Below are positions 3,001-17,130 of a stretch of DNA of 64,000 bases, piece by piece (position 1 is the stretch's first letter; every line of letters starts with the position of its first letter). Below the pieces are notes generated by a model. The model saw only the letters and a program-made list of their open reading frames with translations, was not told where the DNA came from and ran no database searches. Location of the stretch: the NCBI GenBank assembly GCA_965368975.1, contig CBDUPA010000022.1, positions 1 through 64,000 of the forward strand, written 5' to 3'. The stretch is from an uncultured bacterium (GTDB lineage Bacteria > Acidobacteriota > Thermoanaerobaculia > Multivoradales > JAHZIX01). The position numbers were made by a program, and so were the translations under genes.

Positions 3001-6000
3001 ACCCTGGGGCTGGTGCAGCAAGACGGACGGGACGGCGCCCCACCGGGCGACCTGTGGGGTGCCCTCGAGTACGCCACCGACCTCTTCGACGCCACCACCA
3101 TCCGGCGCTGGACGGCCCAGCTGCAGCGGCTGCTGCTCGCCGCCGCGCGGGCCCCGTCGACCCCACTGGCGGCCCTGTCGCTGCTGTCGCCGGCCGAGCA
3201 GCAGACTGTCGCCCACGAGTGGCCCGCCATGGCGAGTGTCCCCAACACGCAGGATCTCTTCCCCCACCGCATCGCCGCCCAGGTCAGGGCGCAGCCGGAC
3301 GCCGTCGCCCTGGTGCACGAGACGCATCACCTCAGCTACCGCGAGATCTGGCGCCGTGCCACGTCGCTGGCCGCCGACCTGCGCCGCCGAGGTGTGGGGC
3401 CGGAAGTGCCGGTCGCCGTCTGCTTGCGGCGCGCGCCGCGTTTGCTCGTCACCCTGCTGGCGGTGCTCGAATCAGGCGGCTTCTACGTGCCGCTCGATCC
3501 TACCTATCCGTCAGAGCGACTGCGTTTCACGCTCGACGACGCCGGCGCCGTGCTGTTGCTCACCGAGCGGCGCCTGGACACCTTGACCGCCGACCTCGAC
3601 GTACCGCGGCTCGATCTGGATTCTCTCGATTCTGAAGCCAGCAACCGCGAACCAGGCTCGTCGACCTGCCCAGCCGCACCCGCCAACCTGGCCTACACCA
3701 TCTACACCTCCGGTTCCACGGGCCGGCCCAAGGGCGTGGCGATCGTGCACGCCAGCACCGCCGGGCTGGTGGAGTGGACGGCGCGCACGTACTCCACCGC
3801 CGAACTGCAGGGCGTGTTGGCCGCGACGTCGGTGTGCTTCGACATCTCGGTGTTCGAACTCTTCGTCACCCTCAGCCTGGGCGGCCGCATCGTCCTGGCT
3901 GAGAACGCGCTGGCGTTGCCGTCGCTGCCGGCGGCCTCGGCGGTGCGCCTGGTCGACACGGTGCCGTCGGCGGTGGCGGAGCTGTTGCGCGGGGCGGATG
4001 CCGATGCCGGCGGCCACCCGCGCGGCCTACCGGCTGGCGTGCTCACCGTCAACCTGGCGGGCGAGACCGTGTCGCGGGACCTGTTGCGACGGTTGGAAGC
4101 CGGTATAGGGCCGCGCGCCATCAACCTCTACGGGCCGTCCGAGGACACCACCTTCTCCACCTGGGCCGTCGTCTCGGACCCGGCGCGCGGCGTACTGAGC
4201 ACCCTGGACGATACCTCGTCCGTCAGCATCGGTCGCATGCTCGACGGCGGCAGCGGTTGGGTCCTGGACCGCGTTGACCAACCGGTGCCCATCGGTGTGG
4301 CCGGCGAGCTTCTCGTGGGCGGACTGGGCGTCAGTCGCGGCTACATCGGCCGGCCCTCGCTCACCGCCTCGCGCTACGTACCGGATGCCCACAGCCGTGA
4401 GATCGGCAGCCGCCTCTACCGCACGGGCGACCTGGTGCGCTGGCGCACGGACGGCAGCCTGAGCTTCCTGGGACGCATCGACCACCAGGTCAAGGTACGG
4501 GGCTTCCGCATCGAGCTGGGCGAGATCGAAGCCCGCCTCGACCGCCATCCTGCCCTCGCCTCGGCTGCTGCCGGCGTGCGTCGCTGGCCGTCCGGAGATC
4601 AGCTGGTCGCCTACGTCGTTGCCCATGCTGGGGTCGCACGGCCAAGCGTCGCCGAACTGCGCGCTTTCTTGGCCGAGACCTTGCCCGCTCACCTGGTGCC
4701 GGCGCGCTGGCGCTGGCTGGACGCCATGCCGCTGACGCCCAACGGCAAGACCGATCGTCGCGCGCTGGCGGCTCTCTTGTGGGAAGAAGCAACCGGGGGC
4801 GAAGACGGCACGGGCGTTCCCGACGGTGAGGCCGCCGTGCCGCCGGAGGGCCCCGTCGAGGAGCTGCTGGCGTCCCTGTGGCGCGCGACGCTGAGCTTGC
4901 CCGTCGCGACGCCGGTGCACCGCGCCTCCAACTTCTTCGATCTTGGCGGCCACTCCCTGCTTGCCACCCGTGTCGCCAACCGCGTGCGCGAACAGCTCGA
5001 CGTCGTGCTGCCGCTGGCCGAGGTCTTCGCCGCGCCCACCCTGGCCGAGTTGGCCGCTCGCGTCGAGGCGCTGCGCTCGGCCGGGAGCGGGGTCGCAGTA
5101 CCACCGCTCGTCCCAGGCGCAGACGGCGATCCCGGCGGCGGCGATCGCACCGCGCCGCTCAGTTTCGCGCAGGAACGCCTTTGGTTCATCGAGCAGTTGC
5201 AGCCCGGCAACTTTGCCTACAATGTGCCGCTGGCGCTGGTCCTGACGGAGCGTGCAGCGGGAGCGCTGCGCGTCGAACGACTCGCCGCCGCGCTGGCGTC
5301 CGTGTGCCGCCGTCACGAAGCCCTGCGTACCACCTTCGCCGAGGTCAACGGCCGGCCGCGGCAAGTGATTGCCCCGGCCTCGTCCGTGCCTCTACACCTG
5401 GCCTTGCCCTGCGTCGACCTGGAGCGGTTGCCGGCCGACGTGCTGGGGCCGGAAAGCCGCCGCCTGGCCACCCGGGAGGCGCGGCGTGTGTTCGACCTGC
5501 AAGCGGGGCCGTTGGTGCGTGGGGTGGTGGTCAGAAGGCCCTGTAGCACAGCCGCAGCCGGTACCGGCCTTCTCCTGCTCACCCTGCACCACCTGGTTTC
5601 TGACGCCTGGTCCTTCGACATCCTGCTAGCCGAAGTCGCCGCCCACCTCCGCGAGCAGGAGCTGCCGCCGCTGCCGGTCCAATATGCCGACTTCGCCACC
5701 TGGCAGCGCCGCGACGAGGTCCGAGAGCAGCTCTTCGACCGCCAGCTCGACTACTGGCGCCGGCAGCTGGCGGGCGTTCCAGAGGCGTTGGATCTGCCGT
5801 TCGACCATCCACGGCCGGCCGTGCAGACCTGGGCCGGTAGTGCAGTACCGTGGGCGTTGCCGGCGTCCTTGTGCCGGGATCTCGACACCTTCGGGCGCCG
5901 TCATGGCTACACCCCCTTCATGCTGCTGAGCGCCGCCTTCCAGGCCGTGCTCGGACGCTACGCCAACGCCCGGGACGTGTGCACCGGCATGCCGATCGCC

Positions 6001-8583
6001 GGCCGGGGTCGGCGCGAGACGGAAGGGCTGATCGGCTTCTTCACCAACACCCTGGTGCTACGCGCACGGCTCGACCCCGGCCTGCGCGGTGACGAGCTGC
6101 TGCGCCGGCAACGCACCGCCGCGCTCGCAGCCTACGACCACCAGGACATTCCCTTCGAGCGCTTGGTCGACGAGCTCCAGCCGGCCCGTGCCCTCAGCCA
6201 CCAGCCGCTGTTCCAGGTGCTCGTCTCGTTGCAGGCTTCGAGTTTTGGGGGCCTTGCCGCGAGCTTGCCCGGCCTCGATGTCGAGGTTCTCGATGTCGAC
6301 CGTGGCAGCGCCAAGTTCGACATCGCTCTCTTCTTGCGCCAGGAGGAGAGGGCCAGCTTCGCCGGTGGCTTCGAGTTCAACCTGGCCCTCTTCGACCGCA
6401 GCACGATCGAACGCCTGCGCCACCACACCGAGTCCTTCCTGCGCGCCCTGCTGCAGCGGCCCGAGGTGCCGATCGACGCACTGTCGCTGCTGTCGGCGAG
6501 TCAGCGTCAGCAACTGCTGCGCGAGTGGCAAGGCTTGCCCCTGGCCCGGACAGCGCGCCCTTCCTACCGTCCCGTCCAGCGTGCCGTCCTCGACTTCGCC
6601 GACGCTACCCCGGACGCCACCGCCCTGCTGTTCTACGCCGGCTTCGCCGGAGCTCCCTATCCGGGCACCCTCAGCTACGGCGAACTGGCGCGCTACGTGC
6701 GCCGTCTGGCCGCCTGGCTGCAACGTCCCAAAGCGGGACCTGCCGGCGTCAGTCCTGCGGGTGTCGGTTCCGCGCGTGTTGGCTTGGGGCATGTCGTCGC
6801 CGTCGTCTGCGGACGCTGCCCGGAACTCTTCATCGCCCTGCTCGCCACCCTCGAAGCCGGCGCCGCCTTCCTGCCCGTCGACCCCACCTACCCGCAAGCG
6901 CGGCGTGACTTCATGCTCGAAGATAGCGGCGCCACCATCGTGCTGACCCAGCGCGACATCCAGGCCGCCCTGGTCTCGACCCGTGGTGAAGCCGACGCCA
7001 TCCTCGCTGCCGCCACTGCCCGCGCCGCCGCGCGCGCCGCTGCCCGCGCCACCGGGCGTGCTACTGCAGCGAATCCACCCAGTGTCGACACGCCGGCCTA
7101 CGTCATCTATACCTCCGGCTCCACCGGTCGTCCGAAAGGTACCGTCGTTGGCCACCACACCCTCGGCAACCTGCTGCACTGGCAGCACCGGCGCACGCGG
7201 GAGCTGCACGGTGCGGCGCAGAAGGATCGCCCCCTGCGCACCCTGCAGTTCAGCTCGCCCAGCTTCGATGTCGCCCAGCAGGAGATCTTCGCCACCTGGC
7301 AAGCCGGCGGCACTCTCGTCCTGCTCGGCCACGGCGAGCGCCGCGACCCCACCCAAGTCCTGCGCCGTCTCGCCGAAGCCGGCGTCGAGCGTCTGTTCCT
7401 GCCCTTCGTCGCGCTGCAACAGCTGGCCGAGCTCGTCCACGCCGGTGTCCACCGTCACGAGTTGCCCACCCAGCTGCGCGAAGTCGTCACCGCGGGCGAG
7501 CAGCTGCGCGTCACCCCGCAGCTGCGCGGCCTCTTCCGTCGCCTGCCCGGCTGCCGCTTGTGGAACCACTACGGCCCTTCCGAGACGCACGTGGTCACCA
7601 CCGAGCTGCTGGTCGACGATCCCCAAGCCTGGGACGACCTCCCCGCCATCGGTCGCCCCATCGACGCCACCACCGTCTACCTGCTGCCTCCGTCCACCGC
7701 CCCCAGCCGCGAACCCGTGCCGCCCGGTGTCGCCGGTGAGATGTGCCTGGCTGGTCAAGCCCCCGGATTCGGCTACCTGCGCCGCCCCGCCGCCACCGCC
7801 CGTGTCTTCGTGCCGGACCCCTTCAGCGAAGATCCCGGCGCCCGCATCTACCGCAGCGGCGACCTCGCCCGCACCCGCCCCGATGGCCGCCTCGACTTCC
7901 TCGGCCGTGCTGACCACCAGGTCAAGGTGCGTGGCTTCCGCGTCGAGTTGGGGGAGATCGAGGCGGTCCTGAGTCGCCTGCCACAACTGCGCGACGCGGT
8001 CGTCGTGGCGCGCGAAGATGTTCCCGGCGACAAGCGCCTGGTGGCCTACCTGCTCGCTGCCGCAGGCGTCGACCTGGAAGATCCGGCGACCGTCGCCCAG
8101 CTGAAAGACCAGCTGAGCGTCGAGTTGCCAGAGCACATGCTGCCGTCCGTCCTGATGCCGCTGGAGACCCTGCCCTTGCTGCCGAGCGGCAAGGTGGACC
8201 GCAAGGCGTTGCCAGCGCCGACGCTGGTCAAGACGGGGGCGGCGTATGTGGCGCCGGAGAACGAAGTTGAGACGGTGATCGCGGGGGTGTGGAAGGAGGT
8301 TCTGCACCTGGAGCAGGTCGGCGTCGAGGACAATTTCTTCGAGATCGGTGGTAGTTCCCTGTTGATCGTCCAGCTGCGCAGCCGTCTGCAGGAAGCGCTA
8401 GGACGCCAGATCCCGCTGGTCGAGCTGTTCCAGTATCCGACGGTGCGGGCGATGGGGGAGCGGTTCGGGAAGGGGGAAGGAGAGGCGGAGGAGAAGTCAG
8501 AGGCGTTGGAGGCGGTGCAGGATCGAGGGAAGGCGCGGAAGAAGTCGTTGGCGCGGTTGAAGAAGAAACGGCGGCGGCGGTAG
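1..8583 (+). CDS. Non-ribosomal peptide synthetase, 5'-truncated by the window; A-PCP-C-A-PCP-C-A-PCP, no thioesterase
   Basis: Frame is open from base 1 (GNGERIALVHGRQHLSYSEL...). Three YTSGSTGRPKG A-domain cores. PCP motifs FFALGGHSLL, FFDLGGHSLL, FFEIGGSSLL. C-domain motifs HHIAADGWS and HHLVSDAWS. Specificity residues read by eye: DFWNIGMV (Thr), DIFDNALT (Ala-like), DVQFVAHV (Pro). Confidence 0.97.
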   Translation, partial: GNGERIALVHGRQHLSYSELCRRAEALAVELRQHGAGPERVVGLCLPRSVELVVAILGTLQAGAAYLPLDPAYPEERRQFSLADGGAVAVVEMEEGYLSISDAAAPQGTHTGVPLHQSREGGLAYLLYTSGSTGRPKGVLIPQSNVLRLLDATDPWFHFGPDDTWTLFHSYAFDFSVWELWGALAYGGRLVIVPYLVSREPARFHRLLAEQRVTVLNQTPSAFRPLIEADAGVAAEGAPRLPLRRVIFGGEALEPAALRPWVERYGDEQPQLVNMYGITETTVHVTHRRLHRRDVEGKAPASLIGPASLIGRAIPDLRLYVLDRHAQPVPIGVVGELYVGSEPGHDAGLARGYHGRPALTAQRFVPDPFADRTPAPGGPRLYRSGDLVRHRGDGDLEYLGRADHQVKVRGFRIELGEIEAALAALESVREAAVLVQELGGDSRLVAFVVGDSFDPTELRQGLLEHLPDHMVPALFVPLDRLPLTPNGKLDRKALRALDVEVPALVERVPPRDDLEARIAALWSEVLGVGEVGVYDDFFALGGHSLLALQLLGRMRRELDVEVPLARLFETPTVAGLAFYIAERRGASNIAERRTVTADSLALPPLLPLDHPATTSGTAPLSFAQQRLWLLHQLDPASSAYHVPLVLELRGALDIAALQHALDTLVARHAVLRTRFQTSADGEPVQHIDLPSPLPLPVCVLPCDLEAEAVDAWVRWAIRQPFDLEHTGEQAGPLRASLLRLPAGPRERHLLVLVLHHIAADGWSLGVLLRELGAAYRGLVLPPLPLQYADFARWQRAALHEVEAAELTYWRQRLAGLPPLLELPTDRPRPAVRRDAGARVAVRFTPPQVETLQQLARAHGATLFSVLLAGFMAWLGRLTGARDVAVGTPVAGRDPVDVEPLIGFFVNTLVLRGDLSGEPSGTPTFEQFLGHLQTATLADVSHRALPFERLVEALSPERATAHTPLFQVMLALQNAPLAAPELPGVEVRVREIDPGSSKFDLTLGLVQQDGRDGAPPGDLWGALEYATDLFDATTIRRWTAQLQRLLLAAARAPSTPLAALSLLSPAEQQTVAHEWPAMASVPNTQDLFPHRIAAQVRAQPDAVALVHETHHLSYREIWRRATSLAADLRRRGVGPEVPVAVCLRRAPRLLVTLLAVLESGGFYVPLDPTYPSERLRFTLDDAGAVLLLTERRLDTLTADLDVPRLDLDSLDSEASNREPGSSTCPAAPANLAYTIYTSGSTGRPKGVAIVHASTAGLVEWTARTYSTAELQGVLAATSVCFDISVFELFVTLSLGGRIVLAENALALPSLPAASAVRLVDTVPSAVAELLRGADADAGGHPRGLPAGVLTVNLAGETVSRDLLRRLEAGIGPRAINLYGPSEDTTFSTWAVVSDPARGVLSTLDDTSSVSIGRMLDGGSGWVLDRVDQPVPIGVAGELLVGGLGVSRGYIGRPSLTASRYVPDAHSREIGSRLYRTGDLVRWRTDGSLSFLGRIDHQVKVRGFRIELGEIEARLDRHPALASAAAGVRRWPSGDQLVAYVVAHAGVARPSVAELRAFLAETLPAHLVPARWRWLDAMPLTPNGKTDRRALAALLWEEATGGEDGTGVPDGEAAVPPEGPVEELLASLWRATLSLPVATPVHRASNFFDLGGHSLLATRVANRVREQLDVVLPLAEVFAAPTLAELAARVEALRSAGSGVAVPPLVPGADGDPGGGDRTAPLSFAQERLWFIEQLQPGNFAYNVPLALVLTERAAGALRVERLAAALASVCRRHEALRTTFAEVNGRPRQVIAPASSVPLHLALPCVDLERLPADVLGPESRRLATREARRVFDLQAGPLVRGVVVRRPCSTAAAGTGLLLLTLHHLVSDAWSFDILLAEVAAHLREQELPPLPVQYADFATWQRRDEVREQLFDRQLDYWRRQLAGVPEALDLPFDHPRPAVQTWAGSAVPWALPASLCRDLDTFGRRHGYTPFMLLSAAFQAVLGRYANARDVCTGMPIAGRGRRETEGLIGFFTNTLVLRARLDPGLRGDELLRRQRTAALAAYDHQDIPFERLVDELQPARALSHQPLFQVLVSLQASSFGGLAASLPGLDVEVLDVDRGSAKFDIALFLRQEERASFAGGFEFNLALFDRSTIERLRHHTESFLRALLQRPEVPIDALSLLSASQRQQLLREWQGLPLARTARPSYRPVQRAVLDFADATPDATALLFYAGFAGAPYPGTLSYGELARYVRRLAAWLQRPKAGPAGVSPAGVGSARVGLGHVVAVVCGRCPELFIALLATLEAGAAFLPVDPTYPQARRDFMLEDSGATIVLTQRDIQAALVSTRGEADAILAAATARAAARAAARATGRATAANPPSVDTPAYVIYTSGSTGRPKGTVVGHHTLGNLLHWQHRRTRELHGAAQKDRPLRTLQFSSPSFDVAQQEIFATWQAGGTLVLLGHGERRDPTQVLRRLAEAGVERLFLPFVALQQLAELVHAGVHRHELPTQLREVVTAGEQLRVTPQLRGLFRRLPGCRLWNHYGPSETHVVTTELLVDDPQAWDDLPAIGRPIDATTVYLLPPSTAPSREPVPPGVAGEMCLAGQAPGFGYLRRPAATARVFVPDPFSEDPGARIYRSGDLARTRPDGRLDFLGRADHQVKVRGFRVELGEIEAVLSRLPQLRDAVVVAREDVPGDKRLVAYLLAAAGVDLEDPATVAQLKDQLSVELPEHMLPSVLMPLETLPLLPSGKVDRKALPAPTLVKTGAAYVAPENEVETVIAGVWKEVLHLEQVGVEDNFFEIGGSSLLIVQLRSRLQEALGRQIPLVELFQYPTVRAMGERFGKGEGEAEEKSEALEAVQDRGKARKKSLARLKKKRRRR
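321..347 (-). repeat. GTAG-family REP-like palindrome inside the NRPS coding sequence
   Basis: Minus strand reads TGTAG-GGGCACCC-CCGTGT-GGGTGCCC, the same layout as the intergenic copy at 17143-17169. Confidence 0.6.
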
Positions 8584-8589
8584 GGGCGC

Positions 8590-8895
8590 CTAGTTCTTGG
8601 TGGCGAGTTGCTGGCGGAGCTGTTCGAGGGCGGCGGAGTCGGCTTCGAGATCGGGGTGGCCGAGTTTCGCCTCCTGGGCGATGCAGGCTTCCAGGGTCTC
8701 CATGGCTTCGGGTAGGCGGTCGAGGTCGCGGAGGACGGGCCCAGCGGTCCCCGACCTCTCTTCGAACGTTGAGAGCTTCGTTGTATTTCTCGAGTGCCAC
8801 CTGTTTCTGTCCGAGGTGTGAGTAGACGGCCGCGATGTTGTTGAGTGTGGGTCCTCTCCAGCCCTGTCTCCGACCTCTCGGGTAACTGCTGGTGG
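8590..8895 (-). pseudogene. Frameshifted remnant of a tetratricopeptide-repeat protein C-terminus
   Basis: TPR-like text is split across two frames: AVTREVGDRAGE (frame A), PTLNNIAAVYSHLGQKQVALEKYNEALNVRREVGDR (frame B), LDRLPEAMETLEACIAQEAKLGHPDLEADSAALEQLRQQL (frame A). No convincing start. Confidence 0.75.
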
Positions 8896-8993
8896 ATCGA
8901 GCGCCGTAGCTCGGGGGCGGTGGTTGGGCATCGTCGTGTTCGAGAATTGCAGACCAAGTAGTTTGGCGAATTGTACCCAAGACACACGTCATA

Positions 8994-9054
8994 CTTCCTT
9001 CAGGAAATCCAACCGACCGCATGGAGCGGCTCCGCGGAGGTTTCCGGAAGGAAG
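8994..9054 (+). promoter_or_regulatory. Structured 5' leader copy 1 (hairpin that pairs with the Shine-Dalgarno)
   Basis: CTTCCTTCAGGAAA...CCGC-ATGGA-GCGG...TTTCCGGAAGGAAG; the 5' CTTCCTT is complementary to AAGGAAG just before the ATG at 9059. Similar to 9251-9316. Confidence 0.55.
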
Positions 9055-9058
9055 AACT

Positions 9059-9157
9059 ATGTCCACCACTCAGCTCGTCGTCTCGACTCTGTCCACCTGG
9101 AGCCGTGGCGCCACCTACGATCCAGATGGTCTACCCGTCGTACTTGCGGAGCGCTGA
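9059..9157 (+). CDS. Small peptide (32 aa) with RGATYDPDG motif
   Basis: MSTTQLVVSTLSTWSRGATYDPDGLPVVLAER; GGAAGGAAG RBS; motif shared with the ORF at 9322. Confidence 0.6.
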   Translation: MSTTQLVVSTLSTWSRGATYDPDGLPVVLAER

Positions 9158-9250
9158 GTTCCGCCCGCTCTCCATCTTTTTTGGTTCTCTCACTGAATTT
9201 CTTGTGATTCTCGGCTTGAACTCTTCCTGCTTCGACGCATGAGTCGCACA

Positions 9251-9316
9251 CTTCTTTTCAGGAGAGTCCCACGGGCCGCATGGTGCGGCCTTGTGGTGGT
9301 TCCCTGAAATGAGGAG
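9251..9316 (+). promoter_or_regulatory. Structured 5' leader copy 2
   Basis: CTTCTTTTCAGG...CCACG-GGCCGCA-TGG-TGCGGCC-TTGTGG...CCTGAAATGAGGAG; aligns with 8994-9054. Confidence 0.55.
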
Positions 9317-9321
9317 ACGTA

Positions 9322-9462
9322 ATGTCGAAGAAGCAATGTTCTGTCGTCCTGGTTCTCAGCCTGGGTCTCATGCCCTTGCTGGGACTGGTTCCTCAGCTCG
9401 AGGATGCACAGCACCGTGGCGTGACCGTCGATCCAAACGGAAGGTCAGGAGCAGAGAGCTAG
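9322..9462 (+). CDS. Small, probably exported peptide (46 aa) with RGVTVDPNG motif; below the ORF-track size cut-off
   Basis: GAGGAG RBS; MSKKQCSVVLVLSLGLMPLLGLVPQLEDAQHRGVTVDPNGRSGAES*. Basic N-terminus plus hydrophobic stretch resembles a signal peptide. Confidence 0.7.
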   Translation: MSKKQCSVVLVLSLGLMPLLGLVPQLEDAQHRGVTVDPNGRSGAES

Positions 9463-9474
9463 AACGTCGAACCT

Positions 9475-9513
9475 GAGGGTAGGCGGGCATCCCTGGGGCG
9501 CCCGCCTACCCTC
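9475..9513 (+). terminator. Strong hairpin after the peptide cassette (terminator or mRNA-stabilising stem)
   Basis: Perfect 14-bp inverted repeat GAGGGTAGGCGGGC / GCCCGCCTACCCTC; no clear U-tract. Confidence 0.55.
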
Positions 9514-9647
9514 CCGCCTTGGGCTGCGAGATCTTTCTTGTATCAATGGCCGTAGTTTTGTCACACTCGGCAACTTAGCGTGCACTATACGAGTGCTGCG
9601 GCAAGATCTCCGTCAGCGCACCCAGAATCCAATGAGGAGGAGCAAGG

Positions 9648-10937
9648 ATGCATATCAACCGTGATCTTCTGATGGCCCTTTTCCGTGGAGAGATCTCATC
9701 AGAGGAGTTGCTCCGACTGGCTCAGGAACATCTGTTGGACCGCTGCCGCTTCTGCCGGCAGGAATTCACCGCCTTCGTCAAGCTGCTCGAGCAAGTAGAG
9801 GAACCGGAAGACACGGCATTGCTGACCTTCGACCGAAGACGCGAACTCCTGGGAAGTGAGGAGTTCAAGGTGCTCGAACCGCAAGCGCGCCGCTGGCAGC
9901 GGGAGCTGGCGGGTCTGCCGAGATCCGCGCAGCTCGAAAAGGTCCAGCGGGCCCGCACGCGGTTTCGCGGTCCTGTCTTCGGCAATCTGATGCTGGAGAT
10001 GGCACGGGCGGCGATGCCGGATGATCCGGCTGCAGCTCTACATCTGGCCAGGATCGCCCAGGTGGCGACGATTCTCGAGGAGGACTACCGGGAGGTTCAC
10101 ATCCTGGCCTTGGCCTACCAGGCGAATGCGCATCGAGTGCTGGGTAACGTGGATGAAGCGGAACACCTCTTCAAGGGGCTCCGGGGCTGCATGGATCTCG
10201 TGACCGATACCCGAACCATCGCGGAAGTGGCGAGTTTCGAAGGCTCCATGGCCTTGGATCACCGGCTGTTCACGGACGCCGAGGCGCGATTCAACCGGGC
10301 GATCAGTCTCTACCGCCTGGTGCGCGATACCGAAGGTGAGGCCCGCAACCTCTTGAATCTCGGTTCTGCCGCTTACTACGCCGGGCACCTCCGTGAAGCA
10401 GTGCTGGTCACCAGGGAGGCGCTACGTCTCGTAGCCGATGAGGAGAGCGAACTCTATCTCTCGGCCAGGCACAACCTAGGTGTCTACTTGTTGGCGGATG
10501 GTGCTGCCGAAGAGGTGGCGACGATGCTGGTCGAGGATTTGCCGCTCTACAGGAAGCTCTCCGTCACTGCACCCAGGTGGAACACCTTCTTCTTCTGGCT
10601 CTCCGGGCGGGCTGCTTCGGCTCTCGGAAACAACGAGCAGGCGGAAGCCCTCTTTCATCAGACGCGCGGCATCTTCGAGCAGTCGGCGAAGGACTACGAG
10701 GCGGCCCTCGTGGGGCTGGACCTTCTGCGGCTCTATGTCAGTGAGCAGCGTTTTGCGGAGGTCTTACGGGTGGTGGAAGAGATCCTGCCGGTCTTCGCTC
10801 GCTATGAGCTGGCTCCGGAGACGCTGGAGCTGCTGTCCGCGTTGGAAAGCGCGGTGCAGCGCGGGCGGGTTGGAGCGAAGCTCCTCGAAAGAGTGACTCT
10901 GCACCTGGAGCACGCCCGGAGACACACTCGGGTCTGA
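9648..10937 (+). CDS. TPR protein with N-terminal HxxxxCxxC (zf-HC2/ZAS-like) motif
   Basis: GAGGAGGAG RBS; EHLLDRCRFCRQE near the N-terminus; TPR-like helices (LALAYQANAHRVLGNVDEAEHLF, ARNLLNLGSAAYYAGHLREAV, ARHNLGVYL). Confidence 0.8.
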   Translation: MHINRDLLMALFRGEISSEELLRLAQEHLLDRCRFCRQEFTAFVKLLEQVEEPEDTALLTFDRRRELLGSEEFKVLEPQARRWQRELAGLPRSAQLEKVQRARTRFRGPVFGNLMLEMARAAMPDDPAAALHLARIAQVATILEEDYREVHILALAYQANAHRVLGNVDEAEHLFKGLRGCMDLVTDTRTIAEVASFEGSMALDHRLFTDAEARFNRAISLYRLVRDTEGEARNLLNLGSAAYYAGHLREAVLVTREALRLVADEESELYLSARHNLGVYLLADGAAEEVATMLVEDLPLYRKLSVTAPRWNTFFFWLSGRAASALGNNEQAEALFHQTRGIFEQSAKDYEAALVGLDLLRLYVSEQRFAEVLRVVEEILPVFARYELAPETLELLSALESAVQRGRVGAKLLERVTLHLEHARRHTRV

Positions 10938-10980: not shown

Positions 10981-11009
10981 AAGAAAAACGGCCGGGTCAC
11001 CCCGGCCGT
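10981..11009 (-). terminator. Rho-independent terminator of the TonB-dependent receptor gene
   Basis: ACGGCCGGG-loop-CCCGGCCGT stem followed by TTTTTCTT on the minus strand, between convergent genes. Confidence 0.7.
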
Positions 11010-11050: not shown

Positions 11051-13987
11051 TCAACGGAAGTTCAGACGCACACCGAAGCGGATCACCCGCGGGCTGACCA
11101 CTTCGTCGACGAAGAAGCCGTTCGAGCCGCTGATGTCGCGCTCGCGCTGCAGGATGGTGTCATCGTTGAACAGGTTGAAGATGTCGGCGCTCAAGGTGGC
11201 CTTGAAGTCGCTGAACGAGATCTCCTTGTCGATGCGCAGATCGACCAGGTACAGCTCGTCGTTGCGCTCGCTACCGGTCGACGTCACCTGAAGGTCACGC
11301 GGCAGGCCGTCCGAGGTCGAGACCGTCGAGTTGCCCAGGTAGTAGGGGCGCGGGTAGCCTTCACGGCCGCTGATGTTGACCGCGACGTTGAAGCCCCACG
11401 GCTCGCTCGGAGCGACCTGGTACATGCCGTTGATGTTGAATGACCAGCGGCTGTTCAGCAGGATGTCGTCCTTGTCACCGGAGCCGTCGGACTGCTGAGC
11501 AACCGGGGCGCCGTTGTTGTCGAAGTCCTTCCACTCGTCGATGTCGGTCTCCGGACGCTGGCCGGGAGCGAGGTCGTTCGGGTCGAAGAAGTAGCTACCC
11601 GGGATGTCCCACTTCCAGTCGTAGTAGGTGAACTGACCACGCAGCATCCACTGATCGGCGAGACGCTTGGTCAGGGTCGCGGTATAGCCGGTGTACTCCT
11701 GCTCGCGGTCACCGTTGCGCAGCAGGTAGCCGCCGGTGAAGGCAACCGCCGGGCTGAGCGCGAAGCTGGGCACGGAGTAGGTGCCGCCACCCGGAATCGG
11801 GCCGCTCAGGGTGCCGTCGAAGACGAAGTCGCCGGGGCCGGCGGGGCGCACGTTGCCGCTGGCGTCACGCACCAGGTAGGCACGCTCGTGCAGGTCCGAG
11901 ACGATGCGGTGGGTCAAGATGAAGCCGCCTACGAGCTCGGGCCGGAAGGCGTGCTCGATGCTCAGGTTGATCTCGTCGGTCTTCTCGGCTTCCAGGCCCG
12001 GATCGTTGCGGTTCGGGCTCGACAGGGCGGCCGGGTTGGCCGGGTCGAAGCCGATGGCGTTGAGGAAGTCGTAGTCTTCACCGGCGTCGAATTCCAGGTT
12101 GCCGTTGGCGTCCGTGAAGTCGATGATCGCGAAGGCGCTGTCCAGCGGGTTGGTACGCGAGATCAGGCCCTGCTGCATCTGCTGCACAAAGCGCGAGTAG
12201 CTGGCACGCAGGAGGGTCTTGCGCTCCGGGCCCAGGGCGTAGGTGACACCGATACGGGGCGAGAAGTCGGTGAACTCGATACCGTCGGCGTCGTTGCCCT
12301 GGAAGTCCAGGTCGGGCAGCAGGCCGGGCAGCAGGTCGTTGCCGGCCAGGGTGAAGGCCGGGTTGTCACCGGTCTGCTCGTCGTAGCGGAAACCGACGTT
12401 GACCGTCAGGTTGTCGCGCGTGATGGTGTCCTGGGCCCAGATAGCCGTGTACTCGGTGGTGTTCTTGAACGCCGGCAGCTCGGCGCGGTAGACGCGGGCG
12501 CGGTGGTCGCGGCCGGCAGTGTTGGCGCCGTTCTCGAACACGATCACATTCTCGCCGCCCCAGGTGGTGCCGGTGCCGGTGTCGGCCTCGCGCAGGCTGG
12601 TGCCGAACTTCAGTTCGTGGGCCATGTTGCTGGTGTTGAAGAAGTACGAGCCATCGACGCGGTACTGGTCGACGTCACGGTCGGAACCGAAGTCGAGATA
12701 GGTACGACCCCAGACACCGCCGCTGTTGAGCACCTGGTCCTCACGCCCCTTGGCGATCAGGCCGAAGCCACCATCGACGTAGGACCACAGGCCGGTCAGG
12801 TAGAAGTCCGAGTTGAAGATGTGGGTGTCTTCGAACTTGAAGATCTCGGTCGGGCCACTCTGGTTCCAGGTGGTTTCCGGCGGGCGCGTGTTGCCGGCAC
12901 CGCGGCCGTCCTTGATCTTGTCACCACGACTGAACTGGAAGACCGCCGAGTTGTTGTCGGTCGCCTGGGCGTTCAGTTTGAGGTTGCTGTTCTCCAGGAT
13001 CGTATCGTCGCGGGCACCGCTGGCCACGATGTTGCGGACGTTCTGTTCGCCGTAGGCGCCCCAGAACCAGAGATGGTCGCGCCAGATCGGGCCGCCGACC
13101 TCGAGGCCCTTCTCTTCCAGCGTGTTGATCTCGTTGCCCTGGAAGTTGGTCTGGCCAGCGGGGAGCTGGTTGGTGTTGAAGTCCGAGCTGCTCTGGAACT
13201 CGGAATCAGCGTTGAAGTAGCGTGCCGAGCCGCGCAACTGGTTGGAACCACGGCGAGTCACCAGGTTGACCGTGACGCCCGGCGTGGCGTTGGCGACGTC
13301 GACACCACCGGTCGACAGCTGCACCTCTTCGAAGGCGTCGAAGTCGTAGTAGGTGGGCGAGGCGCCGATGGCCGACATGTCGGTGATCACGACGCCGTCG
13401 ACGGCGAATACGTTCTGGCCGCTGTCGGAACCAGGGCCCGTGAACACGCTCTGCTGACCACTCTCGTTACCGCCGACGTTGTTGCGGTCGACCTGCACGC
13501 CCGGGGCTTGGTTCAGGATGCTCCAGGGATCGCGCGAGGTGGGGAGCTTTTCGAGCTCCACCGAGCTGATGCTGGTACCGGTGACCAGCTTGCGCTCGTC
13601 GAGCAGCGGGCTGGCGGAGGTGACCGTGATGGTTTCCTCGATCGCTGGCGACAGCGTCACCTCGACTGTCGTGGTGCGGCCAACGCGAATGTTGATGTTC
13701 GGGTACTCGACGGTCGAGAACCCTTCCAGCTCCACGACGAGCTGGTAGTTGCCCGGCGACAAGCCGAGGAAGCGGAACTGGCCTTCCGCGTTGGTGATGG
13801 TGACACGCGGAGCTCCGAGGCCGGAAAGCGTCACGGTGACGCCCGGCAGGGGCTCGCCCTGATTGTCGACGGCGGTGCCGAAGAGGTCGCCGGTTTGTAG
13901 CTGCGCCTGGGCGGTGCCGGCTGAGAAAGCCAGTATCGCGACGAGGGCGAGCAGCCAGAGACTGCGCCTGATTCCTTGTCCTTGCAT
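11051..13987 (-). CDS. TonB-dependent receptor with N-terminal carboxypeptidase-regulatory-like domain (Oar-like)
   Basis: Start at 13987 after a GGAGG RBS; signal peptide MQGQGIRRSLWLLALVAILAFSAGTAQA; LPGVTVTL...GQFRFLGLSPGNY; plug-like region; C-terminal beta-strand FGVRLNFR. Confidence 0.9.
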   Translation of the reverse strand: MQGQGIRRSLWLLALVAILAFSAGTAQAQLQTGDLFGTAVDNQGEPLPGVTVTLSGLGAPRVTITNAEGQFRFLGLSPGNYQLVVELEGFSTVEYPNINIRVGRTTTVEVTLSPAIEETITVTSASPLLDERKLVTGTSISSVELEKLPTSRDPWSILNQAPGVQVDRNNVGGNESGQQSVFTGPGSDSGQNVFAVDGVVITDMSAIGASPTYYDFDAFEEVQLSTGGVDVANATPGVTVNLVTRRGSNQLRGSARYFNADSEFQSSSDFNTNQLPAGQTNFQGNEINTLEEKGLEVGGPIWRDHLWFWGAYGEQNVRNIVASGARDDTILENSNLKLNAQATDNNSAVFQFSRGDKIKDGRGAGNTRPPETTWNQSGPTEIFKFEDTHIFNSDFYLTGLWSYVDGGFGLIAKGREDQVLNSGGVWGRTYLDFGSDRDVDQYRVDGSYFFNTSNMAHELKFGTSLREADTGTGTTWGGENVIVFENGANTAGRDHRARVYRAELPAFKNTTEYTAIWAQDTITRDNLTVNVGFRYDEQTGDNPAFTLAGNDLLPGLLPDLDFQGNDADGIEFTDFSPRIGVTYALGPERKTLLRASYSRFVQQMQQGLISRTNPLDSAFAIIDFTDANGNLEFDAGEDYDFLNAIGFDPANPAALSSPNRNDPGLEAEKTDEINLSIEHAFRPELVGGFILTHRIVSDLHERAYLVRDASGNVRPAGPGDFVFDGTLSGPIPGGGTYSVPSFALSPAVAFTGGYLLRNGDREQEYTGYTATLTKRLADQWMLRGQFTYYDWKWDIPGSYFFDPNDLAPGQRPETDIDEWKDFDNNGAPVAQQSDGSGDKDDILLNSRWSFNINGMYQVAPSEPWGFNVAVNISGREGYPRPYYLGNSTVSTSDGLPRDLQVTSTGSERNDELYLVDLRIDKEISFSDFKATLSADIFNLFNDDTILQRERDISGSNGFFVDEVVSPRVIRFGVRLNFR

Positions 13988-14044
13988 CAGATCTGATCCT
14001 CCCTTGGGTTCCCTGGGGTTTGGTTGGGTCCGTTCCTTGGTATG

Positions 14045-14061
14045 TGCCAATGTCGTGCCAA
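14045..14061 (-). promoter_or_regulatory. Sigma54 (-24/-12) promoter of the TonB receptor
   Basis: TTGGCACGACATTGGCA = GG-N10-GC, about 60 nt upstream of the ATG. Confidence 0.65.
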
Positions 14062-14308
14062 CTTTCGTGTGCTGCGTCTTCCCGGCACGGTGCTCGCAAA
14101 TGCCACCTGTGTGCGGAGTCTTGGCGTGGTTGTGCCCAGACGCCGAATCCAAGCCAAAGTGGGCTTCAGTTCAAGAATTTGGATCTCTCCAAGGCGTGGA
14201 CCAAGAAATTGAATCGTAATGAGCTTTAGAAGCATACCATGTGCGCGTGGCGTTGGGGTAAGGTCTGTGCGGAGGTGTTCGATGACGTTGGGCTGTAGGA
14301 AGCGACCG

Positions 14309-15841
14309 ATGCGCGTACTGCTGTGCGGTGCTTTGCTGGTGTATGCCAGCGTGACCGCCAGCGCGGCGCAGGAGCCGCCGGCGGCGGATGTCTTCGAACC
14401 GATCCGGCAGCTGTTGTCGACAGCGGACCGGCAGACGCGCCGAGCGGCTGCCGAAGAGTTGCAGCGTGCCGGCGACCTGGCGTTGGTGCCACCGCTTGTC
14501 GACGCACTCTTCTTCTTGCCGCGTGACCGGCGGCGCGAAGCTCTGGAGGTCCTGGAGGCGCTGAGCGGGGAACGGCCGGGTGGCCGCTACATGGATTGGG
14601 TGGAAGTCGTCGGCCGGCGTCGCGACCTCGAACCGCCGCCCGGCTACGCCGCCTTCAAGCTGGAGTTGCTGCAGCGCATCGACCCGAGCTACGCCAAGAT
14701 CTTCTACCCTGGTGCACCGTTGCGTATCCGGCTGGAAGAGGTGGTGTGGGGGGGCGTGCCACTGGACGGTATCCCGACGCTGGAGCAGCCGGCCCACATT
14801 CCGGCTGCCGAGGCGGACTATCTGCGCGACGACGAGGCGGTGTTCGGTGTGGCGATCGGTGGCGAAGCGCGCGCGTATCCGCTGCGCATGCTCGACTGGC
14901 ACGAGCTGCTCAACGACGTGGTCGGTGGGGAGCCGGTGAGCTTGAGCTACTGCACGCTGTGCGGCTCGGCTGTCCTGTACTCGACGCGCACGCGCGGTGC
15001 GCCCTACACGTTCGGCACCTCGGGCCTGCTGTATCGCAGTAACAAGTTGATGTTCGATCGTCAGACCTACAGTCTGTGGAGCAACCTCACCGGCGAACCG
15101 GTCATCGGCCGGCGGGCGCGCGGCAGCGTGCGGCTGCGGCAGCTGCCGGTGACGCGCACCACCTGGGAAGCGTGGCACCAGCGCTTCCCGGACACCACGG
15201 TGTTGGCGCTCGATCGTGAGCTGGAGCGCCGGACGGGTTTTCGCTACCGTCCCGGCGCGGCTCGCCTGGCGCGTCGCGGCGTCGAGTTCCCGGTCTGGCA
15301 GCGCGACGATCGTCTGGCGCGTGAGGACGAGGTTTACACGCTGCGCCTGACACAGCTAGACGCTGCGGTCGACGGGGAGGAGTCGGTGAAGGCCTACGAG
15401 CTGGATGCTTTGCTCGAGGTGGGTGTGTTGCACGACGAGCTGGGCGGCCAGCCGCTGGTGTTGGTGGCGGACGAAGGCAGCGGTGCCGTGCGGGCCTATG
15501 CACGTGCTTCCACGGCGCAGACTTTCACGGCGCGCGCTTCGGGCTTGGAGCCGGGCTTGGAGCTGCTCGATGGCGCGGGGGCGATCTGGAGAGCGGACGA
15601 GGACGCGCTGCGCTGTGTCGAGGGATGTGCCGCGTCGACGGATGCACCGCCCGAGGACATGCTGCCCGAGGACATGCTGCCCGAGGACGCACCGTCCGTA
15701 CAACCGCGTGAACTGTCGCACGAGTTGCCGCGATTGGCTGGGCATGTCGCCTTCTGGTTCGGCTGGTACGGCTTCTATCCGCACACCGAGTTGTGGCCGG
15801 ACGCCGAGCGTCCAGACGAGGAGCATAGGATTCGCCGATGA
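14309..15841 (+). CDS. DUF3179-domain secreted protein
   Basis: Signal peptide MRVLLCGALLVYASVTASAA; WGGVPLDGIPTL, ARAYPLRMLDWHELLND, SYCTLCGSA, FGTSGLLYRSNKLMFDRQT, AFWFGWYGFYPHT. Confidence 0.8.
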   Translation: MRVLLCGALLVYASVTASAAQEPPAADVFEPIRQLLSTADRQTRRAAAEELQRAGDLALVPPLVDALFFLPRDRRREALEVLEALSGERPGGRYMDWVEVVGRRRDLEPPPGYAAFKLELLQRIDPSYAKIFYPGAPLRIRLEEVVWGGVPLDGIPTLEQPAHIPAAEADYLRDDEAVFGVAIGGEARAYPLRMLDWHELLNDVVGGEPVSLSYCTLCGSAVLYSTRTRGAPYTFGTSGLLYRSNKLMFDRQTYSLWSNLTGEPVIGRRARGSVRLRQLPVTRTTWEAWHQRFPDTTVLALDRELERRTGFRYRPGAARLARRGVEFPVWQRDDRLAREDEVYTLRLTQLDAAVDGEESVKAYELDALLEVGVLHDELGGQPLVLVADEGSGAVRAYARASTAQTFTARASGLEPGLELLDGAGAIWRADEDALRCVEGCAASTDAPPEDMLPEDMLPEDAPSVQPRELSHELPRLAGHVAFWFGWYGFYPHTELWPDAERPDEEHRIRR

Positions 15842-17130
15842 CTCGTCTGGATCGACCTTCACGCAGGCGCTTCTATGCTCTCCTTGCCCTGGCGTTGGCG
15901 GCACTTGGGTTGAGCTGGGGACTCGCGCGCTGGCCGTCCGGCAGCGAGGTGGCACCGGAGGAAGCGGGGGGTCCCCAGGGCTATTGGCTGTTCGACGGCT
16001 CCTCCGCACCGTCCCCGGATGCTTCGTCAGACGAGCTCGCGCGCTTGCTGTCCTTGCCCTACTCGGGCACCGGCGAGGCCGCGAGTGGTGATAGCGGTGT
16101 GGTCTTCCACGATGCGTCTCGTACCTGGGGGAAATACAACCTCTACAGCGCCGGGCACGGGCCGGAGGCTTTCCTGGTCGACATGGACGGCAATGTCGTG
16201 CACCGCTGGCGTTTCCCCTACGCCGCCGCCTTTCCCGAGCGCGAAGTCGACTCCTGGACCAGCTACTGGCGGCGCGTGCGCTTGTTGCCGGACGGTGGTT
16301 TGGTGGCGCTGTTCCAGAGCGGTGGTCTGATCCGAATCGACCAGCGCTCGCGCTTGCAATGGCGTCTCGACCGTGGCGTCTACAACGACGTGCGCGTCGC
16401 CGCGGATGGCTCGATCGTCACGATCACCAAGGACGCGCGGCAGCTGCCGTGGATCGACCCGCTACAGCCGGTGCTCGAAGATCAGGTCCTGGTGTTGAGC
16501 GCGGGTGGTGTGCCGCTGCGCGAGGTGTCCCTCTTGCGGGTGCTGCTCGACCATGACCCTGGCCTAGTGCGCTTCACCGGCGAGCCGGACCTGCTGCACG
16601 CCAACACCGTCGAGGTTCTAGACGTTGCTGGACCACCGCGCCGCATCCTGTTCTCGGCGCGCAACATCGATACCATCGGCGTCCTCGACCTGGAGACCCA
16701 GCGCGTCGAGTGGGCGCGGCGGGGTCCCTGGCGACGCCAGCATGATCCGCGGCCGCTAGGCTCGGGTGCGGCGAGCGAATGGGGCGATTCGGTCAACGGT
16801 CGTGTGCTGCTGTTCGACAACCAGGGTGGCTCCGACGGCCGCTCGCGGGTCATCGAATTCGATCCGGCGAGCAGTGAGATCGTCTGGACCTTCGAGCACG
16901 AGAGCTTCGACTCCTTCGAGGGCGGCGCCTGCGCGCGCTTGCCCAACGGCAATACGCTGATCAGTTCGTCGATCGAAGGCCGCGCCTTCGAAGTGACGGC
17001 GAGCGGTGAGGTGGTGTGGGAGTTCGTCAACCCGCACCGCGGCGGTCAGCGCGGCGAGTTGCTGGCGGCGCTGTGGGAGGTCGAGCGACTGGCAGCCGAG
17101 GATGTCGAGGGCTGGTTGCTACGCCAGTGA
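15838..17130 (+). CDS. Arylsulfotransferase (ASST)-family beta-propeller protein
   Basis: N-terminal membrane anchor; LVDMDGNVVHRW, DLLHANTV, QHDPR, LLFDN, RLPNGNTLI, GEVVWEF; ATGA overlap with the upstream gene. Confidence 0.75.
   Translation: MTRLDRPSRRRFYALLALALAALGLSWGLARWPSGSEVAPEEAGGPQGYWLFDGSSAPSPDASSDELARLLSLPYSGTGEAASGDSGVVFHDASRTWGKYNLYSAGHGPEAFLVDMDGNVVHRWRFPYAAAFPEREVDSWTSYWRRVRLLPDGGLVALFQSGGLIRIDQRSRLQWRLDRGVYNDVRVAADGSIVTITKDARQLPWIDPLQPVLEDQVLVLSAGGVPLREVSLLRVLLDHDPGLVRFTGEPDLLHANTVEVLDVAGPPRRILFSARNIDTIGVLDLETQRVEWARRGPWRRQHDPRPLGSGAASEWGDSVNGRVLLFDNQGGSDGRSRVIEFDPASSEIVWTFEHESFDSFEGGACARLPNGNTLISSSIEGRAFEVTASGEVVWEFVNPHRGGQRGELLAALWEVERLAAEDVEGWLLRQ

Follow-up and report, generated by a model that had tools for sequence, protein, structure and literature searches.

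A family of small peptide genes paired with TPR proteins of anti-sigma-like architecture in Acidobacteriota: a candidate peptide-gated switch

Introduction

In a 64,000-nucleotide stretch of DNA from an uncultured bacterium of the Thermoanaerobaculia (phylum Acidobacteriota; GenBank assembly GCA_965368975.1, contig CBDUPA010000022.1, positions 1 to 64,000 of the forward strand; "the window" in the following) two small open reading frames (ORFs) with the motif DP[ND]G precede a gene for a 429-amino-acid (aa) protein with tetratricopeptide repeats (TPR). The N-terminus of this protein resembles a zinc-type anti-sigma (ZAS) domain, a module that keeps a sigma factor of the extracytoplasmic function (ECF) type inactive. 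The best explanation for the region is that it represents one member of a large and unnamed family of the Acidobacteriota (Thermoanaerobaculia/Holophagales), in which a small pro-peptide gene is combined with a gene for a soluble receptor-regulator. We are almost certain that this is a real conserved module, and find it somewhat probable that it acts as a peptide-gated anti-sigma switch working like the RRNPP signalling of Firmicutes. New are the 17-member paralogous family, the genome-wide enrichment, a precursor with about 20 cores, short peptides without signal sequence and the controlled binding prediction for the window copy.

Results and Discussion

Pairing of peptide and regulator genes

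A previous interpretation made from the DNA letters alone (the sequence-only reading) had described two peptide ORFs, a hairpin and a co-directional 429-aa TPR ORF, and all of them were found again among the following features of the window:

9008-9049, plus strand: upstream element of peptide cassette 1, containing a small palindrome; direct repeat of 9267-9308
9059-9157, plus strand: peptide ORF 1, 32 aa, ATG start with AGGA 4 nt upstream, core G-A-T-Y-D-P-D-G
9267-9308, plus strand: upstream element of peptide cassette 2, copy of 9008-9049
9322-9462, plus strand: peptide ORF 2, 46 aa, ATG start with AGGAG 3 nt upstream, core G-V-T-V-D-P-N-G
9475-9513, plus strand: GC-rich hairpin, candidate terminator or attenuator without U tract, starting 13 nt past the stop of peptide 2
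9648-10937, plus strand: ORF of the 429-aa TPR protein (Pfam TPR_12)
9648-9821, plus strand: anti-sigma-like N-terminal domain of this protein, residues 1-58, as suggested by alignments, family profile and model
9972-10937, plus strand: TPR superhelix, residues 109-429, with stop codon; predicted peptide-binding groove (TPR_12, model, Foldseek)

The genome comprises 7.13 Mb in 59 contigs, with the window on contig C22. Searched against it, the window TPR protein gave 16 matches at E <= 0.001, and a profile of the paralogues collected 17 ORFs with at least 226 bits, followed by the next ORF at 123 bits. Translated in six frames, the genome yields 14.25 million residues, with only 262 occurrences of the tetrapeptide DP[ND]G. 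A narrow scan for ORFs of at most 220 aa with ATG, Shine-Dalgarno site and DP[ND]G no more than 45 aa from the stop retained 18 ORFs genome-wide, and for 11 of them a member of the 17 paralogues is no more than 479 nt away. As 1.05% of the genome is located within 1.5 kb of these genes, about 0.2 would be expected, and the pairing of peptide and TPR genes is therefore not due to chance. The other seven are far from any paralogue, and most of them resemble chance occurrences. With a stricter rule (ATG, Shine-Dalgarno site, at most 135 aa, h-D-P-x-G with h as a hydrophobic residue at most 25 aa from the stop) 26 ORFs were obtained, 13 of them flanking 11 of the 17 paralogues. Three more paralogues, one on contig C26 and two on C21, have a motif ORF failing this rule, so that 11-14 of the 17 possess an adjacent hDPxG peptide gene; no motif ORF was found beside the paralogues on C9, C40 and C44. 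A three-core family peptide with no regulator gene near is encoded on contig C1 (~682145-682288; L025:5902-6045); it is preceded by a pentapeptide-repeat gene and followed by a VapB/PIN (VapC-like) pair.

In order to follow the family into other organisms, species-representative genomes were searched with the five closest paralogues. This gave 49 related loci in public genomes, all from metagenome-assembled genomes of Acidobacteriota labelled as Thermoanaerobaculia, Holophagales or just Acidobacteriota. In a sample of 301 Acidobacteriota genomes 15 had a match at E <= 1e-25, our own genome included, and 13 of the 14 others belong to the same class; this tally contains genome G024, which is flagged as unpublished and without which it reads 14 of 300. 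The Atlas holds many clusters of 54-189 members named only "TPR protein" or "hypothetical", in which Acidobacteriota are the most frequent phylum, and a word-index homology search returned six relatives, among them P0002 with 69% identity. No orthologues were found in metagenome contigs searched with the single window protein.

Own and fetched loci were pooled into a family set of 102 ORFs at E <= 1e-20, of which 75, counted as full-length members, reach at least 150 bits. These 75 members contain the 17 of this genome, and genes within the loci were called by a heuristic based on GC content by codon position. Their neighbours are distributed as follows:

Narrow motif DP[ND]G (75 members): peptide only 31; peptide and sigma 6; sigma only 13; neither 25
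Wide motif h-D-P-x-G (75 members): peptide only 35; peptide and sigma 8; sigma only 11; neither 21

Co-occurrence of homologues with DP[ND]G ORFs, a check proposed along with the sequence-only reading, thus amounts to 37 of 75 members with the narrow and 43 of 75 with the wide motif, while an ECF sigma gene is adjacent to 19 of 75. Altogether the peptide-TPR pair recurs in about 40 genomes. In a FastTree phylogeny of 68 members hardly any major clade lacks the peptide state, and sigma-coupled clades are interspersed among them.

Clustering of the neighbouring genes of 66 loci revealed sigma factors (10 loci), small XRE-type helix-turn-helix (HTH) proteins (8) and FHA/sigma-54 activators (6) as recurrent. 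No modifying enzyme, protease, transporter, exporter or immunity family recurs within 3-6 kb, according to this clustering and the Pfam assignments of the neighbours. The XRE-type proteins (131-209 aa) stand beside the regulator gene in L034, L042, L046, L053, L054, L063, L064 and L072, and the FHA/sigma-54 activators are found in L013, L043-L045, L048 and L050; both are possible further layers of control.

The peptides

The two window peptides share the core G-x-x-h-D-P-[ND]-G, which recurs in the family in the wider form h-D-P-x-G. Peptide ORF 1 ends with RGATYDPDG and eight further residues and peptide ORF 2 with RGVTVDPNG and six (core at nt 9418-9441), both showing a nine-residue R-G-x-T-h-D-P-[ND]-G close to the C-terminus. 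An alignment of the peptide 2 core with 33 relatives shows no variation at D, P and G, which in part follows from the way it was constructed. Purifying selection acts on the peptide ORFs, with ratios of non-synonymous to synonymous substitution rates (dN/dS) of 0.17-0.72 in all 14 orthologous pairs.

Peptides from other genomes have a length of 72-109 aa, and in 22 of 22 the ATG follows GGAGG or AGGAG. All 22 also pass a crude signal-peptide rule, which asks for K/R within the first 12 residues, a hydrophobic 10-mer and an AXA-like site. Their layout consists of the signal, a Trp-rich amphipathic helix, a low-complexity linker and one to four cores, often with the stop codon right after the Gly. 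In this genome a signal is borne by two peptides on contigs C23 and C26 and by the peptide of the three-gene locus L016, and several others start directly at the Trp-containing hydrophobic stretch that follows the signal peptide elsewhere. Of the window peptides, peptide 2 begins with two Lys and a hydrophobic stretch (10-mer hydropathy 2.85) and has no AXA-like site, and the N-terminus of peptide 1 is not signal-like, with no K/R and a weak hydrophobic core, both judged by the same crude rule.

The 42-nt upstream elements of the two window cassettes are 74% identical at a spacing of 259 nt, and the 27-nt stretches over the cores (9103-9129 and 9414-9440) are 78% identical. To judge from these repeats, the cassettes are old, diverged tandem duplicates, with peptide ORF 1 possibly being a decayed copy. 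To regard the 42-nt element as a promoter or operator is a guess.

The number of cores per precursor ranges from one to about 20, with three on C6 and four on C23. The most extreme multi-core precursor we have seen is a ~200-aa ORF on the minus strand of contig C7 (254669-255307; L026:6265-6864), in which a short hydrophobic leader is followed by ~20 tandem x-S-x-x-I-D-P-[ND]-G units; it immediately precedes the gene for a single-core peptide of 34 aa and converges with a paralogue. The repeat periods of the cores differ between genomes (9, 14, 16 and ~22 aa), which argues against a structural repeat such as a beta-roll-like nonapeptide, an idea we rejected, and favours duplicated units of linker plus core. 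No Pfam or NCBIfam family was found for the 10 peptides tested, or for window peptide 1; the rows returned were sub-threshold and repeat-driven for two multi-core peptides, with one weak row for L074. The genome also encodes OppA-type binding proteins (five matches over the cut-off), a necessary but weak condition for the re-uptake of peptides.

The TPR body and its predicted complex with the peptide

TPR_12 is the sole Pfam family over its cut-off in the window protein (31.7 bits versus 30.1), and NCBIfam offers no name beyond a weak similarity of the TPR region to AfsR and NsdA. Since no membrane-spanning stretch is present (best 19-mer hydropathy 1.24), the protein should be cytoplasmic. 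Across the family, this crude measure amounts to at least 1.6 in 12 of 75 open frames.

An AlphaFold2 model based on a 50-row alignment reached a mean local confidence (pLDDT) of 92.1 and a predicted TM-score (pTM) of 0.88, and begins with four short helices, which a linker connects to a continuous all-helical superhelix. In a Foldseek search against the Protein Data Bank (PDB) the TPR domains of LGN/Pins came first (from E 7e-6), followed by Rap proteins with their Phr peptides, the overall range being E 7e-6 to 5e-4. Among the Rap-type matches are RapJ-PhrC (4gyo_A, E 7e-5, TM-score 0.57 on the query), 8rtc_A, 6t46_E and 4i9c_A. The LGN and Rap-Phr matches all wrap an extended peptide in their groove; as TPR folds are alike in general, this result is a likeness and not a proof.

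For a prediction of the complex the regulator was combined with the C-terminal 30 residues of peptide 2, each with its own alignment. The complex prediction, likewise proposed with the sequence-only reading, resulted in a score of 0.68 (runs 0.71, 0.68 and 0.53), and the best of three controls scored 0.00. Of 157 solved complexes 116 reach the score mark applied, as do 2 of 215 mismatched pairs; this calibration is only rough because of the own alignments. At least 61% of the contacts are common to the runs, and the partner pLDDT is at least 45. Confident contacts are made by residues 11-12, 14 and 16-25 of the 30-mer, which correspond to R-G-V-T-V-D-P-N-G-R, and on the side of the regulator by the following residues (conservation over the 50 rows):

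N160: 90%
R233: 72%
N276: 82%
W317: 94%
237, 240, 243, 272 and 279: highly variable

We read this as conserved residues for the motif and variable ones for specificity, which is an interpretation and not a result. On the basis of these models the peptide core probably binds in the TPR groove.

The N-terminal domain and its sigma factors

The sequence-only reading had taken HLLDRCRFC (residues 28-36, nt 9729-9755) as the ZAS motif. Its spacing is H-x4-C-x2-C and thus one residue longer than H-x3-C-x2-C of ZAS domains, so that the assignment did not hold in its literal form; it is nevertheless backed by profile comparison. Candidate zinc ligands of the window protein are H2, H28, C33 and C36, and the modelled head consists of helices 5-12, 18-24, 34-48 and 53-58 with a pLDDT of 73-84. 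A head profile was built from the N-terminal 60 residues of 32 members chosen for H-x3/4-C-x2-C, a motif carried by 30 of 72 members at first count and by 39 of 75 at a later one. In the alignment of the chosen N-termini a first His is separated by about 24 residues from a second one, after which come x3-4, Cys, x2 and Cys. This profile matches the anti-sigma factor ChrR (2q1z_B) with E 3.5e-5 and with all four ligand positions aligned, DdvA (8rlz_A) with E 1.6e-4 and the RslA-type chain 3hug_B with E 6.4e-3. The Pfam family zf-HC2 is matched by 12 of the 32 relatives (best E 5.2e-5), and the canonical H-x3-C spacing is present in six members (L031, L032, L036, L040 and two genes in L076). From these sequence comparisons, the N-terminal domain very probably descends from an anti-sigma factor.

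In the sigma-coupled members (19/75) the ECF sigma gene (Sigma70_r2 and r4_2) ends at or overlaps the start of the regulator gene. The order peptide, sigma, regulator is realized in L041, L059 and L016 of our own genome (peptide 4732-5037, sigma 5058-5645, regulator 5638-7014), and the order sigma, regulator, peptide in L031, L036 and L040. The genome contains three close relatives of this sigma factor, one beside the L016 regulator and two alone. The latter are two tandem ECF sigma genes on the minus strand of contig C13 (5714-7281, L107), related to the L016 sigma with 264 and 211 bits and without adjoining anti-sigma gene; we infer them to be candidate trans partners of the orphan regulators. 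Among 303 sigma relatives only generic names were found.

Proposed mechanism and alternatives

That the locus senses a peptide in a manner analogous to Rap-Phr had been suggested by the sequence-only reading, and the suggestion has been strengthened by the pairing in 43 of 75 members, dN/dS below 1 in 14 of 14 pairs, the Rap-Phr/LGN-like model and the complex prediction passing its controls. Its second half, an anti-sigma system, gains from the ChrR match, the 12 of 32 zf-HC2 matches and the sigma genes beside 19 of 75 members including an own paralogue; the window copy itself has neither a zf-HC2 match nor an adjacent sigma gene. The analysis shows the genes and their repeated pairing, the selection on the peptides, the homology of the head, the fold of the body and a controlled binding prediction; binding itself, an effect on sigma, export, trimming and re-uptake are inferred in the following way. 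The peptide core G-x-x-hydrophobic-D-P-x-G would sit in the concave TPR groove, its presence there would alter the hold of the N-terminal domain on a sigma factor, and the peptide would thereby switch the sigma regulon on or off. The sigma factor of the window regulator would be encoded elsewhere, with orphan regulators acting in trans. By analogy with RRNPP systems, the peptide would probably be exported, trimmed and taken up again, which would amount to cell-to-cell signalling.

We do not hold all parts of this model with the same confidence. Control of a sigma factor by peptide binding could in our opinion equally well turn out right or wrong, and an extracellular signalling loop, for which we argue from the RRNPP analogy, is possible but somewhat less to be expected. 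The most far-reaching version is a tentative one: Acidobacteriota might own a peptide communication in which exported pro-peptides are trimmed to hDPxG signals, re-taken and bound by TPR anti-sigmas that release ECF sigmas, with up to 17 channels per genome, most having their own peptide and converging on a few sigma factors.

Several findings weigh against a peptide-gated anti-sigma switch. For the head domain, the invariance of H28, C33 and C36 is a matter of construction as the rows were picked by motif, leaving only the first His (>=90%) as independent. The window copy has the non-canonical H-x4-C spacing and taken alone no zf-HC2 match at E up to 1, the H..C..C motif is absent altogether in 36 of 75 members, and no sigma gene is adjacent to the window TPR gene. 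Concerning the pairing, the wide-motif rules leave 21 of 75 members without a peptide or a sigma gene in their neighbourhood. A narrow-motif ORF was found at only one of the 26 non-own loci of the best-scoring relatives, which belong mostly to sigma-coupled clades and some of which gained a peptide under the wider motif. Conservation in the predicted interface as a whole does not exceed that of the remaining TPR domain (mean entropy 2.17 versus 2.27, one-sided p 0.27), the fold of the peptide partner is uncertain with a pLDDT below 50 in some runs, and the score may reflect the memory of the model for Rap-Phr or LGN complexes. Finally, only 2 of 14 peptides in this genome pass the crude signal-peptide rule, making export doubtful here, with peptide 2 lacking the AXA-like site and peptide 1 the signal.

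One alternative is that the peptide is an output and not a signal, namely a secreted product (bacteriocin-like, matrix or another effector) within a sigma/anti-sigma regulon, and that the TPR protein senses something else, for example another protein or a redox signal at its zinc site. It is common for ECF operons to include targets of their own, and in the three-gene loci the peptide gene stands in one line with those for sigma and anti-sigma. Outside this genome all 22 peptides look exported, while the regulator is cytoplasmic. ZAS domains are known redox sensors (PMC8999054). However, 35 of 75 regulators keep a peptide without an adjacent sigma gene, and the short core is the sole invariant part of otherwise fast-evolving peptides and is just the part placed in the groove by the model. 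Moreover, exporter, immunity or processing genes are not recurrent nearby. We therefore judge a role as output to be unlikely.

A different possibility is that the peptides, at least in this genome, stay inside the cell as small protein ligands of the neighbouring regulator, similar to anti-anti-sigma adaptors, and that no cell-to-cell signalling takes place. Here the 12 of 14 peptides failing the crude signal rule, several of them beginning at the Trp-containing hydrophobic helix, would find an explanation, and the binding prediction is independent of export. Against it speak the clear signal peptides in 22 of 22 relatives elsewhere as well as on C23, C26 and in L016 of this genome. In addition, the absence of a signal is no proof of retention, since streptococcal PptAB exports short hydrophobic pheromone precursors without Sec signals (PMC10075063). 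Purely intracellular ligands are also improbable to us overall, but plausible for the signal-less peptides of this genome.

Leader-plus-core layout and multi-core precursors with up to ~20 cores are typical of ribosomally synthesized and post-translationally modified peptides (RiPPs), and the window locus as well as the C40 paralogue (by Pfam) adjoin genes for non-ribosomal peptide synthetases (NRPS). One could therefore think of RiPP precursors tied to the adjoining NRPS cluster, in which case the TPR protein would serve as a scaffold or regulate the pathway. Against this stand the lack of any recurrent modifying enzyme, protease or transporter family in the 66 loci, the fact that only 2 of the 17 family loci of the genome adjoin an NRPS, and the lack of a Pfam or NCBIfam precursor family among the 10 peptides, leaving this explanation very improbable. 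Chance frames next to an ordinary TPR protein, for which the abundance of short ORFs in high-GC DNA and the 7 of 18 distant motif ORFs might speak, can in our view be dismissed as already refuted by co-occurrence (11 of 18 versus ~0.2) and selection (14 of 14), together with the strong Shine-Dalgarno sites and the recurrence in other genomes.

Transcriptional layout and surroundings of the window locus

The hairpin at 9475-9513 folds with -38.2 kcal/mol (z -3.5), and equal folding was reached in 0 of 200 shuffled sequences; a simple terminator scan did not call it, as the U tract is absent. The spacer between the peptide 2 stop (9462) and the TPR gene start (9648) has a length of 185 nt. GC-rich hairpins directly after the peptide stop are present in five of the seven co-directional peptide-to-TPR spacers of the genome (window, L011, L012, L013 and L018), that of L012 with a U tract. 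The folding z-scores of the 80-nt stretches are -4.5 for the window, -2.9 for L011, -1.0 for L012, -3.4 for L013, -0.95 for L014, +0.2 for L021 and -3.5 for L018. The hairpins fit a peptide transcript that is terminated on its own and is probably the more abundant one. Attenuation of the TPR gene by a leader peptide was also considered and rejected as a poor fit with the convergent and downstream arrangements of peptide genes. A sigma-70 scan found no promoter, and inspection by eye of the upstream regions of the 17 paralogues gave no convincing common promoter motif; among them, one upstream stretch is shared by the window gene and its closest paralogue only.

The following neighbours flank the module:

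1-8583, plus strand: multi-module NRPS ORF, running off the 5' end of the window
8590-9022, minus strand: apparent 3' remnant, with frameshift, of a gene of the TPR_12 type, situated after the NRPS stop (8583) and ahead of the peptide cassette
10988-11009, no strand assigned: hairpin between the convergent TPR and outer-membrane receptor genes, 9-bp stem with 8 GC pairs
11051-14152, minus strand: 1033-aa outer-membrane receptor (CarboxypepD_reg, weak Plug match, beta-barrel), convergent to the regulator gene
14219-15841, plus strand: DUF3179 protein
15838-17130, plus strand: arylsulfotransferase-like protein

The NRPS translation shows what we take to be the core motifs of adenylation, condensation and carrier domains. 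Within the remnant, frame 8231-9022 has a sub-threshold TPR_12 match reaching the end of the profile (E 2.2e-4) and the minus-strand frame 8590-8985 encodes a C-terminal helical tail, for which no paralogue was found in the genome. The hairpin at 10988-11009 has a T-rich tail on the minus strand only and is terminator-like there. The NRPS cluster and the TonB-type receptor had been noted in the sequence-only reading as neighbours of the peptide module; in a comparison of neighbours across the family loci neither is a conserved partner. The closest paralogue, L011 (contig C12, ~221-235 kb), has a defence-like neighbourhood and adjoins a TIR-domain protein and three Ser/Thr kinase-FGE-sulfatase fusions, one of them with SEFIR/TIR.

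Significance

Signalling by peptides and TPR receptors is regarded as a property of Firmicutes and the mobile elements they carry, and soluble ZAS anti-sigmas are known as redox sensors; a family joining both would show a new kind of control of ECF sigma factors. If our model is true, intracellular peptide sensing would be extended to an abundant but little-studied phylum of soil and sludge, and peptide quorum sensing with RRNPP logic and a sigma factor as direct output would exist in diderms, which is undescribed so far. It would also provide a testable handle on cell-to-cell communication in mostly uncultured organisms. The small modular parts (peptide, receptor and sigma) could serve as orthogonal switches, and the many paralogues per genome are a natural experiment in peptide-receptor specificity.

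Comparison with known systems

With the ZAS anti-sigmas ChrR (2q1z, 2z2s), RslA (3hug) and DdvA (8rlz) the family shares a head whose profile aligns His...His-x3-Cys-x2-Cys with ChrR, abutting ECF sigma genes in 19 of 75 members and, for the window protein, solubility as in ChrR. It differs in the one-residue insertion (H-x4-C) and the missing adjacent sigma gene of the window copy, in its sensor, which is a 320-residue TPR superhelix instead of a cupin (ChrR) or a membrane/periplasmic part, and in the loss of the motif by close to half of the members. Pairing with a peptide gene was not among the ZAS features described in the literature searched. The sigma-coupled members would fit the group ECF270 of the 2021 classification by Casas-Pastor, to go by its listing in a review as a group from Acidobacteria whose ZAS-type anti-sigma is soluble and of unknown mechanism (PMC8999054). 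Searches of the literature turned up neither a description of a TPR anti-sigma factor coupled to a peptide nor one of RRNPP-like systems in Acidobacteria. A diderm precedent is PatS/HetN-HetR of heterocystous cyanobacteria, where a short C-terminal motif of a small gene product acts on a cytoplasmic regulator; HetR is not known to be a TPR protein or an anti-sigma, and the genes are not known to be paired neighbours.

A close analogy is offered by the RRNPP systems of Firmicutes and of their phages and plasmids (Rap-Phr, NprR-NprX, PlcR-PapR and AimR-AimP). In a detector study that screened Firmicutes and viruses, their signature is given as a pro-peptide of 10-100 aa, exported by the Sec or PptAB type, and a TPR receptor of ~250-500 aa encoded by the neighbouring gene, with reference spacers of -50 to 191 bp and frequent intragenic duplication in the pro-peptides (PMC10075063). 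The window module agrees with four of the five points of this signature, namely peptide size, receptor size and TPRs (counted as two) and adjacency (PMC10075063). Common to both are also the small pro-peptide gene beside a cytoplasmic receptor of 250-500 aa, the conserved peptide part at or near the C-terminus, the duplication of the core within the gene and, in the models, a Rap-like receptor fold with the peptide predicted in the groove. In contrast, no sequence relationship is detectable (11-15% identity in structural alignments) and no Rap, NprR, PlcR or AimR model of Pfam or NCBIfam matches. The output is an anti-sigma-like domain here instead of an HTH domain or the Rap helix bundle, the host phylum is diderm with up to 17 receptors per genome, and many pro-peptides carry an extra Trp-rich helix. 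As homology, output domain and host all differ, we describe the module as one that would work like RRNPP signalling and do not file it as a member of that family.

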